Positions 49,630-63,067 of a stretch of 64,000 nt of DNA are shown here, one piece after another. Source of the DNA: Escherichia coli. Lineage in GTDB: Bacteria; Pseudomonadota; Gammaproteobacteria; Enterobacterales; Enterobacteriaceae. The notes below the pieces were generated by a model. The model saw only the letters and a list, made by a program, of their open reading frames with translations, was not told where the DNA came from and did no database searches. The stretch is from NCBI RefSeq assembly GCF_051903065.1, contig NZ_CP178438.1, one strand, 5' to 3'. The stretch's first letter is position 1. Each line of letters opens with the position of its first letter. The position numbers and the translations under genes were made by a program.

Positions 49630-50649
49630 TCAGAAGTCGGCTTTCAGGACCACTCGGTAGCGCGCTTTACCATCGCGCACATGCTTGATGGCGTCGTTAA
49701 TTTTCGACATCGGGAACAGTTCGGTAGTCGGCGCAACCTTGCTGCGGGCGGCAAAGCGCATCAGCTTACGCAACTCATAAGGCGTGCCGGTAGCAGAACC
49801 AGAGACGCTGCGGTCGCCCGCAATTAACGTAAAGGCCGGAACAGACAGCGGCGTGAGGACCGCACCGACCGTATGGAAATTACCGCCATAGGTCAGCGCC
49901 TCAAAATAGGGCTGCCAGTCGAGGCTGACGTTGACGGTGTTGATAATGAGATCAAACTGCCCCGCCAGTGCTTTCAGTGCCTGTGGATCGCGGCTATTCA
50001 CCACTTTATCGGCACCCATCGCCAGCACTTCCTGCTCTTTCGCCGGATTAGAACTAAAGGCCGTCACCTCGCATCCCATTGCGTGCAGAAGTTTTATAGC
50101 GATATGCCCCAGCCCGCCAATACCAATTACCCCAACGCGGCTGGTAGCAGTGATATGGTGCATCAACAGTGGTTTAAAGACCGTGATACCGCCGCACAAC
50201 AGCGGCCCGGCGGACTCGATATCAATATTTTCTGGCAGTGGAATCACCCATTGCCAGTCCGCACGCAACTTCTCGGCAAAGCCACCGCGATTCATAATCG
50301 TCGGCACCGCACCTTGCTCGCAGTTGATCTGATTACCGCTAATACAGGCGTCGCAGTGACCACAGCTACGCGCCGTCCAGCCAATCCCGACACGCTGACC
50401 GACCTGCAAACCTTTATCCTGCGCGGCGCTCCCGAGTGCCACCACGCGACCAATCACCTCATGCCCGGCAACCAGCGGATATTGTGAAAATCCCCATTCG
50501 TTATCGATCATCGACAGATCGGAATGGCAGATCCCGCAGTAATCCACCTGCACTTCAACATCTTGTGGCTTCAGTTCACCGGGATCGTACTCATAAACTT
50601 CCAGTTCGCCGCCTGCTTCTTTTGCGGCATAGCTTTTTATCATCGACAT
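49630..50649 (-). CDS. ahr: NADPH-dependent aldehyde reductase Ahr (Zn-dependent alcohol dehydrogenase family)
   Basis: [10 protein letters not shown]...GHEVIG...GIGGLGH motifs; 339 aa from ATG 50649. Confidence 0.9.
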
Positions 50650-50844
50650 TTTTTGGTCCTTCTCTGGTGTTGTCTGGGAAGTGTAGAGCATGGCAGGGCG
50701 GGGTGCCTGGAGTGTGACAAAGGTTACACATCGCTGTATGCAATGCTGAAAATTTCAGCACTTAGCAAAGTGGGTGCAAGCTGGCGCTTGCATGGTGGCG
50801 TGCGACAGGTATAATCCACAACGTTTTCCGCATACCTCTTCAGT

Positions 50845-50929
50845 GCCGAAGTGGCGAAATCGGTAGACGCAGTTGATTCAAAATCAACCGTAGAAATACG
50901 TGCCGGTTCGAGTCCGGCCTTCGGCACCA
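50845..50929 (+). tRNA. leuX: tRNA-Leu (anticodon CAA)
   Basis: 85-nt sequence gccgaagtggcgaaatcggtagacgcagttgattCAAaatcaacc...ggttcgagtccggccttcggcacca with D-arm, long variable arm, T-arm and CCA end. Confidence 0.95.
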
Positions 50930-51115: not shown

Positions 51116-52381
51116 ATGGCATTAACAGATATCAAAGTCAGAGCAGCCAAGCCAACGGATAAGCAATATAAGCTGACTGATGGTGGCGGTATGCATCTGC
51201 TTGTCCATCCAAATGGTTCTAAGTACTGGCGTTTGCAGTACCGTTATGAGGGAAAGCAAAAAATGCTGGCACTTGGGGTTTATCCTGAAATCACACTAGC
51301 GGATGCCAGAGTACGTCGTGACGAGGCGCGTAAGCTGCTTGCGAATGGCGTCGATCCGGGAGACAAAAAGAAAAATGATAAGGTTGAACAGAGTAAAGCA
51401 CGAACCTTTAAAGAAGTCGCGATTGAGTGGCATGGCACCAATAAAAAGTGGTCTGAAGATCACGCCCATCGTGTGCTAAAAAGTCTGGAAGATAATCTTT
51501 TTGCAGCGCTTGGTGAACGTAATATCGCTGAGTTAAAAACTCGAGATTTATTAGCACCCATTAAGGCCGTAGAAATGTCTGGACGTCTTGAAGTGGCCGC
51601 TCGTCTTCAGCAGCGCACTACAGCCATCATGCGCTATGCAGTGCAAAGTGGGTTAATTGATTATAACCCGGCACAAGAGATGGCTGGGGCGGTTGCTTCC
51701 TGTAATCGACAACATCGTCCCGCGCTTGAATTAAAGCGCATCCCTGAGTTGCTTACAAAAATAGATAGCTATACTGGTAGGCCGCTAACCCGATGGGCGA
51801 CAGAACTCTCTTTGCTGATCTTTATTCGGTCCAGTGAGCTGCGTTTTGCTCGTTGGTCAGAGATCGATTTCGAAGCGTCTATATGGACTATCCCACCGGA
51901 GCGGGAGCCTATTCCTGGAGTGAAACATTCCCATAGAGGCTCAAAAATGCGTACAACGCATCTAGTGCCTCTTTCAACGCAAGCTCTTGCAATTTTAAAG
52001 CAGATAAAACAGTTTTGTGGGGCCCATGACTTGATATTTATTGGTGATCACGATTCGCACAAACCCATGAGTGAGAATACGGTAAATAGTGCGTTACGGG
52101 TCATGGGGTATGATACAAAAGTAGAGGTTTGTGGTCATGGCTTTCGAACAATGGCCTGTAGTTCATTGGTCGAATCAGGTTTGTGGTCTCGTGATGCTGT
52201 TGAACGTCAGATGAGCCACATGGAGCGAAATTCAGTGAGGGCCGCGTATATCCATAAAGCAGAGCATCTGGAAGAACGCCGCTTGATGCTACAATGGTGG
52301 GCCGATTTTCTGGATGCAAACAGAGAAAAATTTATCAGTCCATTTGAATATGCAAAGATTAATAATCCATTAAAACAGTAA
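51116..52381 (+). CDS. P4-type tyrosine integrase (IntB-like) marking a leuX-integrated island
   Basis: 421-aa ORF immediately 3' of a tRNA gene, N-terminal MALTDIKVRAAKP...KYWRL typical of P4 integrases, C-terminal catalytic region with conserved HxxR and Tyr; RBS agggaggg. Confidence 0.9.
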   Translation: MALTDIKVRAAKPTDKQYKLTDGGGMHLLVHPNGSKYWRLQYRYEGKQKMLALGVYPEITLADARVRRDEARKLLANGVDPGDKKKNDKVEQSKARTFKEVAIEWHGTNKKWSEDHAHRVLKSLEDNLFAALGERNIAELKTRDLLAPIKAVEMSGRLEVAARLQQRTTAIMRYAVQSGLIDYNPAQEMAGAVASCNRQHRPALELKRIPELLTKIDSYTGRPLTRWATELSLLIFIRSSELRFARWSEIDFEASIWTIPPEREPIPGVKHSHRGSKMRTTHLVPLSTQALAILKQIKQFCGAHDLIFIGDHDSHKPMSENTVNSALRVMGYDTKVEVCGHGFRTMACSSLVESGLWSRDAVERQMSHMERNSVRAAYIHKAEHLEERRLMLQWWADFLDANREKFISPFEYAKINNPLKQ

Positions 52382-52704: not shown

Positions 52705-54204
52705 TTACCTGTGGTCCGGAAGAATAAGTGGCTGCGGTTTCAGACTGTCTGCCGGCACATTTTTCTCTCCGTTAAAAACCATAACGGGTTCATTATCTTC
52801 GTCTGTCAGCGGATTGAATGGCGGTATATTTTCGGTACGAATACCGGTCAGCCACTGAAAAATGCCTGCGAAATTACGGGCACTGATTTTCCTGCTGACG
52901 GACTGATGAGACGTGATGTCACTGGCGGTAATAATCAGGGGAACGCTGTAGCCCCCCTGCACATGACCATCATGATGAACAGGATTAGCACTGTCGCTGA
53001 CCGACAGCCCATGGTCAGAAAAGTAAAGCATTGCAAAGTGACGGGAATGCCGGCGAAGGATACCATCAAGCTGACCGAGAAAGTTATCCAGTTTACTGAT
53101 GCTGGCGAGGTAACAGGCAATCTTTCGGGGATACTGCTCCAGGTAATAATTCGGCCAGGAGTTAAGTCGGTCACACGGATTCGGATGAGAGCCAATCATG
53201 TGCAGGAAAATCACCTTCGGCGAGGATTTATCCGCCAGCGCACGTTCTGTTTCCTGTAACAACAACATGTCATCCGTTTTACGGGAAGCGAAGCTGCCTT
53301 TCTTGAGGAAAACGGTATGCTCCGCATCAGAAGCAATAACAGAGATGCGTGTGTCATGCTCTCCCAGTTTTCCCTGATTGGATATCCACCATGTGCTGTA
53401 TCCTGCTTTTGCTGCCAGCGCCACCACGTTGTTGCCGGAGTCAGGGTTCTGCTCATAGTCATAAATCAGTGTCCGGCTCAGGGAAGGTACGGTACTGGCT
53501 GCTGTCGATGTATAGCCGTCAATAAATAAACCGGGAGCAGTATTCAGCCACGGCGTGGTTGGCACGGGATAGCCATATACCGACATATAATCCCTGCGCA
53601 CACTCTCACCAGTAACGATAACAATCGTGTCATACAACGGCACACCCGGCAGGATTTTCCAGTTATCAGCCCCGTGCTGACTCAGTTGTTTATAACGCTG
53701 CATTTCACGCAATGTGTCAGTTGTCCCCACAACAGTTCCTTTAACCATCCGCAACGGCCAGCTGTTTACAGAGCATAATACGAATAGCAGCAGTGCCAGC
53801 CAGTTACGGTGACCGCGGTGGTGTGTCCGCCAGAAAATCACCATGAATACCAGAATCGCGGCACTGACCAGAAAATGATAAACAGGAATCATCCCGGTAA
53901 ACTCTGCAGCCTCATCAGCCGTGGTCTGCAGCAACGCGACAATAAAACTGTTGTTGATTTTACCGTACGTCATACCCGCAGGCGCATACAGTGCACAACA
54001 GAACAGAAATAACAGCGCTGTAATGGATGTGAGGGTATTTCTGTGTGCAAGGAGAAGAAGGAGAAACAGAAGCAGCACATTTCCTGTGGCATTCTTCTCA
54101 GTGTATCCGCATGCAATTGTGGTTATTGCAGAAACAACAAAAAAGAATAAAAACAATAAAATCCGGGGTGTGTTTCCCGGACAAAACAGTTTTCTGATAT
54201 TCAT
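52705..54204 (-). CDS. sulfatase-family inner membrane protein, phosphoethanolamine transferase-like (EptA/OpgE family; yjgX-like)
   Basis: 499-aa ORF with N-terminal TM helices and C-terminal sulfatase-type domain (HMIGSH...SDHG). Confidence 0.75.
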   Translation of the reverse strand: MNIRKLFCPGNTPRILLFLFFFVVSAITTIACGYTEKNATGNVLLLFLLLLLAHRNTLTSITALLFLFCCALYAPAGMTYGKINNSFIVALLQTTADEAAEFTGMIPVYHFLVSAAILVFMVIFWRTHHRGHRNWLALLLFVLCSVNSWPLRMVKGTVVGTTDTLREMQRYKQLSQHGADNWKILPGVPLYDTIVIVTGESVRRDYMSVYGYPVPTTPWLNTAPGLFIDGYTSTAASTVPSLSRTLIYDYEQNPDSGNNVVALAAKAGYSTWWISNQGKLGEHDTRISVIASDAEHTVFLKKGSFASRKTDDMLLLQETERALADKSSPKVIFLHMIGSHPNPCDRLNSWPNYYLEQYPRKIACYLASISKLDNFLGQLDGILRRHSRHFAMLYFSDHGLSVSDSANPVHHDGHVQGGYSVPLIITASDITSHQSVSRKISARNFAGIFQWLTGIRTENIPPFNPLTDEDNEPVMVFNGEKNVPADSLKPQPLILPDHR

Positions 54205-54363
54205 CGGAGTATATCGACAACATTATGATGAAGAGAACAGGATAATAAAAATCAGAAATTATCTGTAAAACAGATAACAGACAACCCTGCAGTATAATTA
54301 CTGCAGGGTGTTTCCTTTTAATTACAGAAGATAAGTAATTATTATCTTTCAGGAGCAGTTTCG

Positions 54364-55104
54364 TCAGAAGTTATAAGTCACACCAAGCATGATGTCATGA
54401 CTTTTAACATCAACCTCTGATTTATATTTATCGCCCCACTCATCCTTGTAACTCACACTGCTGTCACCTGCATCAATATAGCGATAGCTGAGGTCAAGAG
54501 CGATATCCGGGGTTACGTCATAACGGACACCAGCCCCAAGGCTCCATGCAAAGTTGTCAGCAGAGTCTGAGTGTGACAACGACTCACGCCCACTGTACCC
54601 GTACCCATAATCCCAGGTACTGATACCAGTTGTTTTCTGATGAATTCTGGCGTAACCAATCCCTGCGGATACCCATGGTGTGAATGCACTGTCGTTCCGG
54701 AAGTCATAGTACGTATTCAGCATCAGAGTGTTGACTGACACTTCATTCTTCAGGTCATCACGCCAGTAACCACCTGACCAGCTGTCTTTATCTACGTTAT
54801 ACTTCGAATCAGCTTTTCCACGCGCGTAAAACTCCAGTTCTGTACGAACCGGAATACTGAACTGCGGATAAAAATCATAACCGGCCGCAATACCGCCACT
54901 GAATACCGTATCATGGTCATCGCCGCCTTTATACTTTGACGTTTCTTCCTCATCTCCTGACAGGAAACGCTGGTCTGAAAGTGACACCACAGAGGCACCG
55001 GCTTTACCGGTCAGATAAAAACCGCTTTTACCTTCCTCAGCACCTGCATTTGCTGCAAATACACAGGCTGCGGCCACCACTGAAACAGCAAAAACCTTTT
55101 TCAT
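54364..55104 (-). CDS. outer membrane beta-barrel protein (OmpA-like transmembrane domain family)
   Basis: 246-aa ORF with signal peptide MKKVFAVSVVAAACVFAANAGA, alternating aromatic/hydrophobic beta-strand pattern and C-terminal ...GVTYNF. Confidence 0.7.
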   Translation of the reverse strand: MKKVFAVSVVAAACVFAANAGAEEGKSGFYLTGKAGASVVSLSDQRFLSGDEEETSKYKGGDDHDTVFSGGIAAGYDFYPQFSIPVRTELEFYARGKADSKYNVDKDSWSGGYWRDDLKNEVSVNTLMLNTYYDFRNDSAFTPWVSAGIGYARIHQKTTGISTWDYGYGYSGRESLSHSDSADNFAWSLGAGVRYDVTPDIALDLSYRYIDAGDSSVSYKDEWGDKYKSEVDVKSHDIMLGVTYNF

Positions 55105-55455
55105 TTCAATTATCTCCGTTATTGCTCCGTTGCTGCAAGCAGTACTCAGTGCATTTTAAAACCCGCCATGCGATAGTCTCAATTGAATAAAATCGATCTA
55201 ATCGATAGATGATATCGATCGTCATTAACCAGAAATTTTTATCGTATTCAGTCAGCACAGATACAACAAATGCATGCCATGCAGACAGTCATACCCGGCA
55301 ACAACAGCAGATGGTTGCTGAGCAAGCAGGGAGTGAGGCTGAATCCCGGGGAAGAAAAAACCTGTAAAATTTGTTTATTCTGCCAGGAGATAAAAGTGAC
55401 GTGTGTTCATGTAACACACCAGGGACGAAAGATGCATGGACTGACAGTTTGGGGG

Positions 55456-56512
55456 GGCTTTGTTGAATAAATCGAACTTTTGCTGAGTTGAAGGATCAGA
55501 TCACGCATCCTCCCGACAACACAGACCATTCCGTGGCAAAGCAAAAGTTCAGAATCACCAACTGGTCCACCTACAACAAAGCTCTCATCAACCGTGGCTC
55601 CCTCACTTTCTGGCTGGATGATGAAGCGATTCAGGCCTGGTATGAGTCGGCAACGCCTTCATCACGAGGAAGGCCCCAGCGCTATTCTGATCTCGCCATC
55701 ACCACCGTTCTGGTGATTAAACGCGTATTCCGGCTGACCCTGCGGGCTGCGCAGGGTTTTATTGATTCCATTTTTGCCCTGATGAACGTTCCGTTGCGCT
55801 GCCCGGATTACACCAGTGTCAGTAAGCGGGCAAAGTCGGTTAATGTCAGTTTCAAAACGTCCACCCGGGGTGAAATCGCACACCTGGTGATTGATTCCAC
55901 CGGGCTGAAGGTCTTTGGTGAAGGCGAATGGAAAGTCAGAAAGCACGGCAAAGAGCGCCGTCGTATCTGGCGAAAGTTGCATCTTGCTGTTGACAGCAAC
56001 ACACATGAAGTTGTCTGTGCAGACCTGTCGCTGAATAACGTCACGGACTCAGAAGCCTTCCCGGGCCTTATCCGGCAGACTCACAGAAAAATCAGGGCAG
56101 CCGCGGCAGACGGGGCTTACGATACCCGGCTCTGTCACGATGAACTGCGCCGCAAAAAAATCAGCGCGCTTATTCCTCCCCGAAAAGGAGCAGGTTACTG
56201 GCCCGGTGAGTACGCAGACCGCAACCGTGCCGTTGCTAATCAGCGGCTGAGCGGAAGCAATGCACGGTGGAAATGGACAACGGAATATAACCGTCGCTCG
56301 ATAGCGGAAACGGCAATGTACAGAATGAAGCAGTTGTTGGGAGATTCACTGACGCTGCGTGACTACGATGGTCAGGTAGCGGAAGCTATGGCCATGGTGC
56401 GTGCGTTGAACAGGATGACAAAGGCTGGGATGCCAGAAAGCGTGCGTATTGCCTGAAAATCCAGCCAGCTACAGGGTCGTTCGCACGAAATCTTATTTAT
56501 TCAACAAAGCCC
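55456..56512 (+). mobile_element. IS903-group insertion sequence (IS5 family), about 1057 bp
   Basis: Left end ggctttgttgaataaatcgaacttttgctgagttgaaggatcag and inverted right end ...tcttatttattcaacaaagcc; single transposase ORF; no flanking 9-bp direct repeat. Confidence 0.85.
55533..56456 (+). CDS. IS903-type transposase (DDE)
   Basis: ORF VAKQKFRITNWSTYNKALINRGSLTFWLDDEAIQAWYE...; start placed at in-frame GTG to give 307 aa (tool ORF begins at TTG 55488). Confidence 0.85.
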   Translation: MAKQKFRITNWSTYNKALINRGSLTFWLDDEAIQAWYESATPSSRGRPQRYSDLAITTVLVIKRVFRLTLRAAQGFIDSIFALMNVPLRCPDYTSVSKRAKSVNVSFKTSTRGEIAHLVIDSTGLKVFGEGEWKVRKHGKERRRIWRKLHLAVDSNTHEVVCADLSLNNVTDSEAFPGLIRQTHRKIRAAAADGAYDTRLCHDELRRKKISALIPPRKGAGYWPGEYADRNRAVANQRLSGSNARWKWTTEYNRRSIAETAMYRMKQLLGDSLTLRDYDGQVAEAMAMVRALNRMTKAGMPESVRIA

Positions 56513-57624
56513 ATACCCCTCTGAAAATCAGTCATCAACTCACCAACACATCTTCTGAAATCTGTATTAAACTTATTGCTTAAATAGATGATATAACACA
56601 TCTTCCATTGCACGGAATCAGCGAAAACTGTCATTCTGGCAATCTTAACAAGATCATTTATCGGTTAATTTTATCAGTAAACAATGGAATATCACACTGA
56701 TAAAATGAACATTCAGGGTAAGATGATAAAATTCACATAAAAAATGCTGAAGATTATTTATTTCATGCAGATAAACGATAAAATACAAGAGAGTATATTT
56801 TTCAGTGTAAGAGTCAATCGTTCATCTCCACTGACGATCACGGTCAGCACATAAACAAAGTGAGTCCTCCTGCTTAGTCATTGCGTATCAGAAACTAAAA
56901 AACAAAAGATTCTGTAAACAACGTGACATTTTTTATGACATTTCCCGAATACAGATATATCAACAAACAGTAGTCAGCGTTGAATTAATAAGTTTTACAG
57001 GGCTATACGTATCTTATAAAACCACTCAACGACCATCATCACCTGACTATTTAGCGGGAGTATCATCTGTATAAATTCCTAAATAATAACACCTGTTATT
57101 AAAATAAGAATGCTGTCAGCAGTAAATTATTAACATAACACCTGTCCACTCTATCTGTTCTTCTAACTCAACCGGCATCGAAAATATTGCCTGATTAGTG
57201 CATCATAGCCTTCTTTTTTCTTTCCCGACCATCAAAACAAATACAACATTTACAACCACACAATAAAACAAAACTAAAACAAAACTAAAACATAAGATTA
57301 ACAACACCAATCAACAGGAAAACACTGAATATTGAGGTGCCCTGTAACCTGGAGAGCGCATACGGCGCATGTGATCAACACAGCCCATTCTTTTCTGTCA
57401 TCCCCCAAATGCAGAACAAACAAGCATAACCTAATGAATATAAAATAAAATATTATTTTTCACCATCATAAAAACATCAATGTATCTTTATATAAAAACA
57501 CTGATAACATGACATAAACATTTAAAAACATAAACAAATCACAACAAAAACATTTGATAATCACTTAGTGACAAAATAAAATTGAGACGATTTTGTTATA
57601 AGAGAGGCGCCATGGAGTGAGATA

Positions 57625-58644
57625 ATGAATAACGAACAGATGCTTATCAAATGCAAAGATCCCCGTAAATGTCGGTTTTATGCTGAATATCTGAATCACA
57701 AATACCCCAATGAATTCCCTCAGTTTGCGCCTGACAACCCACAAAACTGTATCAGAAATGTTAATGCGTTTTTAAAAGAAAAGTATTGTAATACTTCAAA
57801 CAATTCTTTTGGTGTTTTTGGTTCGACTGCAGAAGAAGCTCTCAGCAAAGAAATTAATGAACTTGAAATTATTGCAGGGCAGGCAATACTGCCTGAAGAG
57901 AGTTTTCTCTGGTTGAAAACTGACGAACTTGCGACTTTCTTTACCTGGACTACTATTTATCTGTCGAAGGAAGACCATACAAATTTCCCGGAAATAAACC
58001 ATAATTCATCAGGGATAAAAAACGGAATTGAAGTCAGAAAAAGACGAACAGTTACCGATGAAACGTTAAATACTTACAAAAAAAGTAACCTTCCGGATAA
58101 TCCATCATCCCATAACGAACGAATAAAAGTAATCATTTTATATTTTGATTCCTGTCATTCTTTAATTAATAAAAATGCAAAAAGCATATACCTCGAGGAA
58201 CTCAGGCAGACGTGGCTTAAAAATAAAAGCGCTTGTCAAAAGTTTAAGTGGCTCCTTCCTGACGATGATGAAATGTGTCAGTGGTTCTGGACAAGACTGA
58301 AACAAAAACAGGATGAAACACATCCGGTACATAACCCGGTGACCCGGTGGTTCATACCATCTTCAACGAAAGAATATTATCTTGCCTCTCTCGTCGCCTT
58401 TGCTTTATGGAAAGAGGCACCTGATACCATTGAACTGTTCAGAACACGCATAAATCATGCCTGGCATCAAAAAAAACAAAAAGACAAATATCGGAATGAT
58501 GGTAAAAAGGCTATTAATATACATATAAGAAGCAATGCGAAAGAAATGCTTGATGAACTCAGAACTGTTTACGGTCTGAGAACAGGAGAGTTTTTTGAAA
58601 TGCTGATTACAGAAAAATATCTTGAACACAAGCGAAGGAAGTAA
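57625..58644 (+). CDS. hypothetical protein, AT-rich orphan ORF
   Basis: 339-aa ORF with RBS ggagtgag upstream; lysine/asparagine-rich, several Cys/His; no family recognised from sequence alone. Confidence 0.5.
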   Translation: MNNEQMLIKCKDPRKCRFYAEYLNHKYPNEFPQFAPDNPQNCIRNVNAFLKEKYCNTSNNSFGVFGSTAEEALSKEINELEIIAGQAILPEESFLWLKTDELATFFTWTTIYLSKEDHTNFPEINHNSSGIKNGIEVRKRRTVTDETLNTYKKSNLPDNPSSHNERIKVIILYFDSCHSLINKNAKSIYLEELRQTWLKNKSACQKFKWLLPDDDEMCQWFWTRLKQKQDETHPVHNPVTRWFIPSSTKEYYLASLVAFALWKEAPDTIELFRTRINHAWHQKKQKDKYRNDGKKAINIHIRSNAKEMLDELRTVYGLRTGEFFEMLITEKYLEHKRRK

Positions 58645-62165: not shown

Positions 62166-63067
62166 CTTCACCATTTATTCAACAAATTGCTGATAACCGG
62201 GTATGTCAGGTACTCACCTGTCTTCCTGAAAAATTTGTGGTTGATTTCGCAAACGGAATCGATGTTGCACAGGAGCATATCCGCACGGCCGGAGAGCGCA
62301 CGTTCTTCCGGCGTTTAAAAGAGGGGATGACCGGCGAAGGCGCTGCACGGCAGAATGCCATCAATGCTTCGCTTGCACAGGGCGTTGAGGCGTCCCTGCG
62401 CTGGCTGACGGAGCTGACAACGTCACTTGCCACCACAAACTACGCGATTACCCGGGTAAACGACAGGGTCAGTTCACTGGTCAGTGATACTGCCAGGCTG
62501 GCGCATTATTCGGCTGACACGCGGGAGCAGTTACTCACCCTGGCCGATCAGGTTCACCAGAAACTGAATCATCTTGAAGAAAAACTCCACCGTGTTGACC
62601 AGGTTCAGCGGGCGCAGTTACATCTTGAGCAGATATTCTCATGGTGGAGCGCCGGGCGATATGCGTCATTTTCCCCTGCCGGACGTTGTTATGTGGCACT
62701 TGAAGAGCTTCGCTGGGGCGCGTTTGGTGATGTGATACGCCAGGGCGAAACAGGCCAGGTTAACCAGCTACTGGATATTCTCAGACATAAAGCATTAACG
62801 CAGATGGCACAGGAGAGTGGCGGTAGTGCAACCGTGCGTCTGAACACTCTGGACTGGCTTGGTGGTCAGGGCCGGGAGCAGGCAGATAACGAGTGGCATG
62901 ACGCGATTAACTGGCTGGGGGACTGGTGCAGTGAAGAGCAGCATCCGGTGATCTGGTCAACCACGCAGGCTGCAGAACACTTACCGGTTCGCATGCCTCG
63001 CCTCTGCTCTGCAGAACGCCTCTCTGAAAGTATGGTCGATGAAATATTTCAGAAGGGGGCAGCATGA
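62162..63067 (+). CDS. hypothetical protein of unknown function, translationally coupled to flanking genes
   Basis: 301-aa ORF whose GTG start overlaps the upstream stop (GTGA) and whose stop overlaps the downstream ATG (ATGA); predicted helical middle region. Confidence 0.55.
   Translation: MTSPFIQQIADNRVCQVLTCLPEKFVVDFANGIDVAQEHIRTAGERTFFRRLKEGMTGEGAARQNAINASLAQGVEASLRWLTELTTSLATTNYAITRVNDRVSSLVSDTARLAHYSADTREQLLTLADQVHQKLNHLEEKLHRVDQVQRAQLHLEQIFSWWSAGRYASFSPAGRCYVALEELRWGAFGDVIRQGETGQVNQLLDILRHKALTQMAQESGGSATVRLNTLDWLGGQGREQADNEWHDAINWLGDWCSEEQHPVIWSTTQAAEHLPVRMPRLCSAERLSESMVDEIFQKGAA

Follow-up and report, generated by a model that had tools for sequence, protein, structure and literature searches.

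The insertion sequence (IS) that lies upstream of an outer membrane protein (OMP) gene in the leuX island of this Escherichia coli genome is not bracketed by a target-site duplication, and an IS-mediated one-sided deletion or exchange very probably explains the missing duplication (a probability of about 0.9). We favour adjacent deletion by intramolecular transposition as the event that made the joint, and give it an even chance. That transposition rather than recA-dependent recombination was responsible is what we infer from comparisons that do not decide between the two, and recombination between two copies of the element is a close rival.

Results

Boundaries and integrity of the element

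We analysed a stretch of 64,000 nucleotides, referred to here as the window, and the features that bear on the IS are collected in Table 1. The IS sits 351 bp upstream of the OMP gene start codon. The OMP matched a generic beta-barrel in Pfam and gave sub-threshold matches only in NCBIfam, and its Tia/Hek label rests on the RefSeq annotation of an 88%-identical gene.

Table 1. Features of the leuX island on either side of the IS, with positions in the window.
Feature	Position	Strand	Remarks
leuX (tRNA-Leu CAA)	50845-50929		
Integrase gene	51116-52381		
Phosphoethanolamine-transferase gene	52705-54204	-	
Tia/Hek-like beta-barrel outer membrane protein gene	54364-55104	-	Last gene of the conserved integrase/phosphoethanolamine-transferase/OMP module
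Left 9-bp flank GTTTGGGGG, old junction	55447-55455	.	Common to 13 of 5426 complete genomes
Complete IS5-family, IS903-group insertion sequence, ISKpn74-like	55456-56511	+	1056 bp; boundaries from empty-site genomes and IS903B controls with duplications
Left terminal inverted repeat GGCTTTGTTGAATAAAT	55456-55472	+	17 nt, perfect
DDE transposase gene	55488-56456	+	322 aa from TTG (RefSeq WP_000654811.1); 307 aa from GTG at 55533
Right terminal inverted repeat	56495-56511	-	17 nt, perfect complement of left repeat
Right 9-bp flank CATACCCCT, new junction	56512-56520	.	Present only in the window and NZ_CP136025
AT-rich non-coding stretch, right flank, native island DNA	56512-57624	.	99.9% identical to NCTC9699

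IS-free genomes aligned with the window through 55455 and then diverged, which marked the left boundary. The base that follows ...CAAAGCC varied between copies of the element (c, g, t or a), and the right end was therefore placed at 56511. The preliminary description had delimited the element as 55456-56512; its start stands, and its end lay 1 bp too far. Even with 3 mismatches allowed, only 0.15 matches to the terminal repeat would be expected in shuffled sequence, and IS903B and IS102 have the same 17 nt at their ends. Where the dynamin-family gene meets the RdcB-family gene, a sequence with 3 mismatches to the repeat was seen (CAATTTGTTGAATAAAT, 62173-62189, minus strand), which is probably due to chance. 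The transposase reading frame was uninterrupted, its product matched NF033579 (IS5 family transposase) over positions 1-289 of 289 with 354 bits against a cutoff of 140, and DDE_Tnp_1_5 and DDE_Tnp_1 of Pfam both matched as well. The identical protein is recorded in at least 1000 contigs. Perfect arms, an open transposase frame and a full-length family match bear out the intact terminal repeats and intact transposase gene described earlier.

The two flanks, GTTTGGGGG and CATACCCCT, had nothing in common and did not form a 9-bp target-site duplication, nor were they inverted copies of each other. The longest word common to both 20-nt flanks, as judged by eye, was 4 nt (CTGA), at different offsets. 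A direct repeat might have lain at slightly different boundaries, as the preliminary description had pointed out; we looked for one, including shifts of 1 bp at either end, and found none. The flanks had been given there as gtttggggg and atacccctc: they do differ, and the right-hand 9-mer is corrected here to CATACCCCT. Two copies of IS903B at related loci, delimited in the identical manner, served as controls and showed perfect 9-bp duplications, CGGGAATAC (L008) and CCGCAAAAC (L009). The absent duplication is a property of the insertion event and not of the element.

Identity of the element

The element fits the IS903 group of the IS5 family, whose members have terminal repeats of ~18 bp beginning GGCTTTGTTGAATAAAT, a length of ~1.05 kb and one DDE transposase of ~307 aa. 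IS903, IS903B and IS102 (1057 bp, 9-bp duplication) have the same 17-nt terminal repeats and a single 307-aa DDE transposase. Nucleotide identity was 94.9% to IS102 of pSC101 (54 differences) and 88.3% to an IS903B copy (124 differences), and the transposase was 93% identical to that of IS903B at the protein level. ISKpn74, published in Klebsiella pneumoniae PBIO2030, is 1056 bp long and is 94.52% identical to IS102, 89.04% to IS903B and 88.9% to IS903 (PMC8431375). Both in length and in identity to IS102 and to IS903B the window element agrees with these published values, so that it fits ISKpn74, a putative name reached by triangulation, and not IS903 proper.

An assignment as IS903 proper or as an IS903B isoform was rejected, as nucleotide identity was not above ~95% (88.3% to IS903B as measured, and 88.9% to IS903 as published). 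With ~12% nucleotide difference from IS903B and a length shorter by 1 bp, the element is a distinct IS and not an isoform. The earlier label of an IS903-family element is therefore correct for family and group, and would not hold for IS903 itself. The window element is identical to copies in L001, L003, L004 and L011 (0 differences), and has the length, the IS903-type terminal repeats and the plasmid abundance of ISKpn74: at least 1634 plasmid records carry an element of this type at >= 99% identity, and it is very common on plasmids of Klebsiella and E. coli.

Native sequence at the two sites

We surveyed 5426 complete E. coli genomes, and scanned metagenome contigs for exact patterns. The left flank of the window was present in 43 genomes, and the site was empty in 23 of these, reading ...gacagtttggggg/ATATGATGCAACTACAGACCAAAGTG..., where the slash marks the position of the IS. 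In such genomes the region upstream of the OMP gene continues (...gtttggggg/ATATGATGCAAC...) for ~90 bp into an IS1 and then into variable or defence cargo. This agrees with the earlier proposal that the event accounts for the abrupt transition from the OMP gene to AT-rich DNA in the window, as the empty-site relatives run into IS1 and defence cargo instead. The cargo that follows the IS1 ~90 bp past the site includes a complete BREX-1 system in NCTC9699 (L007, 12062-25439) and, in the leuX island of SEV1 (L013, 21143-39857), where the site is empty, a cluster of UvrD-helicase, DEAD-box helicase, methyltransferase and DUF1998 genes.

The right flank could also be traced to native sequence, which reads ...gggatcccatacactttcc/catacccctctg... 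(...cactttcc/catacccct). In the pheV island of NCTC9699 both native sites were found, colinear, in the same orientation and 23,212 bp apart; the interval holds an IS1, a hypothetical gene, the complete BREX-1 system, zinc-ribbon genes, hha, an IS3 and small regulator genes, and past the right site NCTC9699 and the window encode the same proteins (hypothetical, GTPase and dynamin-family). A reading frame of 339 aa in the window (57625-58644), in the most AT-rich stretch (~35% G+C), was matched by no family in Pfam or NCBIfam. Its product (WP_023145611.1) is conserved in several islands, where it is encoded upstream of the GTPase, dynamin-family, RdcB-family and patatin-like genes. For the left flank of the window, identity was higher to a leuX island (99.2%) than to NCTC9699 (97.4%); for the right flank it was higher to NCTC9699 (99.9%) than to a leuX island (99.3%). 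A leuX ancestor carrying both native sites was not found in the survey, and NCTC9699 represents a pheV island. Two matches in which the IS at first appeared to adjoin the right flank (H10 and H19) proved to be copies of IS903B that lie elsewhere nearby and have duplications of their own.

These comparisons with related islands, which the preliminary description had suggested, show native sequence at both sites and bear out its proposal of an IS-mediated deletion or of recombination between two copies; the native sites, their colinearity in NCTC9699 and the loss of the ~90 bp in a second genome, described below, all agree with it.

The same structure in a second genome

The whole structure of the window was found in one of the 5426 complete genomes, NZ_CP136025. 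The two islands were identical, both junctions included, save for one unit of an 11-bp tandem repeat (TAAAACAAAAC, 57264-57292, 2.6 copies in the window and one unit fewer in NZ_CP136025). The native ~90 bp to the right of the left site were absent from NZ_CP136025, in which positions 1-151 alone of the empty-site query were present, and the chromosome, the replicon searched, held a single IS903-group copy. Just upstream of leuX, the core gene ahr (50013-50769) differed between the two genomes by 16 SNPs. An identical island next to divergent ahr alleles indicates that two core backgrounds carry the rearranged island, as a result of either transfer or recombination near leuX, and hence that the island is not an assembly artefact.

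Copies of an IS are classic sites of misjoining, and a false join across a repeated IS could give the structure seen; so could a composite transposon of which the IS is one end, with a duplication at its outer ends. Both seem very improbable, given that both junctions recur unchanged in a separate complete genome whose core allele differs, that the chromosome of this genome carries one IS903-group copy and that the window contains no second one.

One left junction and many right junctions

An IS903-group element was present at exactly the position of the window IS in 13 genomes, in leuX or pheV islands. Right junctions were read in 12 genomes and were compared along with that of the window, giving 13 sequences. 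There were ten different right junctions among them, none of which equalled GTTTGGGGG and none of which formed a duplication. Several endpoints were nested along the pheV island and the downstream chromosome, lying inside pglX of BREX-1 (ETEC1738), spt and a ytfJ-like gene, and beside glcA. The same left junction occurred in both leuX and pheV islands and on two left-flank haplotypes, whose differences are concentrated in 53261-54760 and at the end of the integrase gene, with hardly any in the 700 bp next to the IS. Of the two junctions, the left is the old one and the right the new one.

The elements at this junction were not uniform, and in 7 of the 12 genomes read the IS was not purely of the window type. 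Those in L010, L012, L017 and L018 were of the window (ISKpn74) type up to about position 290 and of the IS903B type from 302, L016 and L019 carried other mosaics, and L020 had an almost pure IS903B at the same nucleotide. Such chimeric elements at one junction are direct evidence of recombination between members of the IS903 group. Four genomes with one common chimeric IS, two of them differing by a single base near the right end, had three different right flanks, which implies that the right end moved again while the IS otherwise stayed unchanged.

A mosaic-like structure was also seen in IS102 of pSC101 (L015, NC_002056, 6916-7972), which resembles ISKpn74 at the informative sites in roughly its left two thirds and IS903B at those in its right third. 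This copy, too, has no 9-bp duplication, its flanks being catactgaaagt and gggtgtggtgaa.

In four genomes (L006, 6526-7581; H124-H127) the same IS, with 1 SNP, occurred at a second anchor 25 bp further right (...GACCAAAGT/IS), also without a duplication and with right flanks that apparently vary between genomes. The second anchor may have arisen by a separate insertion, or a 25-bp deletion may link it to the window junction.

The presence of several IS903-group sequence types at the same nucleotide, with a second anchor 25 bp away in four genomes, might suggest a target hot spot at which elements inserted independently and the duplications then decayed by point mutation. We regard this as scarcely credible, and duplication decay as effectively refuted, because each flank equals native sequence as far as the IS end, and the two come from different places. 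A difference at all nine of nine bases does not amount to decay, no trace of a duplication was left in any of the 13 sequences, and NZ_CP136025 lacks the DNA that natively follows the left site on its right.

Search for precursors

Two precursors were sought, one with a second copy at the right-hand site and one with the primary insertion and its duplication. None of the 5426 complete E. coli genomes had an IS903-group element at the right-hand site, and the exact-pattern scan of metagenome contigs gave neither an IS left end after CATACCCCT nor an IS right end before GTTTGGGGGATATGATG. The two-copy precursor is thus unobserved, which is negative evidence only. A primary insertion with an intact GTTTGGGGG duplication was likewise not found in the complete genomes or the metagenome contigs. 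The window contained no second IS903-group copy, and in COL60J no second ISKpn74 copy that would mark a possible inversion was seen in the 48 kb to the right.

Discussion

The missing duplication may reflect either a deletion made by the element itself, or homologous (recA-type) recombination between two direct copies of ISKpn74, one at the left site and one before CATACCCCT, in which the surviving copy keeps one flank of each. Both copies could have been on the same chromosome, with loss of the interval, or the crossover could have joined incoming and resident DNA during horizontal transfer. Taken as a whole, recombination between two copies is a serious possibility whose odds fall somewhat short of even. 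The chimeric elements at exactly this junction prove that such recombination occurs at the locus, the left and right flanks of the window are not closest to the same relative, as would fit a joint between DNA of different histories, and the abundance of ISKpn74 on enterobacterial plasmids means that second copies are easily supplied. Against it stand the lack of any IS903-group copy at the right-hand site in the genomes and metagenome contigs searched, and the need for an insertion as well as a crossover for each of the many right junctions. The IS in the window is non-mosaic, although a crossover between identical copies would leave no trace.

Adjacent deletion would start from a single resident element. 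The left junction is ancestral (13 genomes), the right site is distal and colinear (23,212 bp away in NCTC9699), and the chromosome of NZ_CP136025 has neither the intervening DNA nor a reciprocal junction. Further, both flanks of the window equal native sequence right to the IS ends, and there is no duplication, though the same boundary rule yields perfect 9-bp duplications in the IS903B controls. We favour adjacent deletion over recombination because a right-site copy is absent from the 5426 genomes and the metagenome contigs, because many right junctions on one left junction then need one event each instead of two, and because one chimeric IS has three right flanks.

In the sequence of events that we envisage, a single ISKpn74-like element would have resided upstream of the OMP gene, at the edge of the integrase/phosphoethanolamine-transferase/OMP module of the leuX island, with the left junction as the older one. 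The right end of the IS would later have been joined to a distal point of the island just before CATACCCCT, within AT-rich DNA that precedes the GTPase/dynamin cluster, with removal of the interval between. This interval measures 23.2 kb in NCTC9699, the only colinear relative found, where it includes IS1, BREX-1 and other genes. NCTC9699 shows that the two sites can be colinear, and the leuX relative SEV1 carries a different cargo after the IS1. The transposase would use both IS ends to attack a target on the same molecule, such that the chromosome retains one copy of the IS between the old left flank and the new target and the intervening DNA exits as a circle. Loss of the circle would leave the retained copy without a bracketing 9-bp duplication.

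IS903 has been reported to form adjacent deletions and cointegrates (PMC12670165; PMC11708052; PMC8431375). Adjacent deletions mediated by IS903, IS26, IS1 and IS5 (PMC11708052; PMC12670165) resemble the case in the window in several ways: one IS end retains its flank, the other abuts DNA that was once distal and has kept its orientation, no duplication is present, and endpoints are nested in relatives. They differ in that the mechanism proposed here comes from comparing sequences, and recombination between copies gives the same product.

The event in the window is an ordinary one of an already known kind, the scar left by an IS after a deletion or exchange in a tRNA-linked island, by a textbook mechanism. 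Its main value for the window is one of annotation: the IS marks the scar of lost island cargo, and the gene order across it is therefore secondary, the lost interval being 23 kb and including the BREX-1 phage-defence system in the one colinear relative. With one anchored IS, ten right-hand partners and several mosaic types, the locus is a clear example of an IS reshuffling tRNA-linked islands.

The only wider interest lies in the anchored IS903-group copy, at which breaking and joining have recurred in many E. coli lineages. It is conceivable, though we think it unlikely, that the point upstream of the OMP gene in pheV and leuX islands is a standing joint for the swapping of cargo. If so, a resident IS903-group element would repeatedly delete or exchange the downstream cargo by adjacent deletion and by recombination between IS copies, and the cargo swapped would include anti-phage systems such as BREX-1 and the helicase/methyltransferase/DUF1998 cluster. 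One anchored IS would then drive the turnover of defence islands across lineages, and even between the two tRNA sites.
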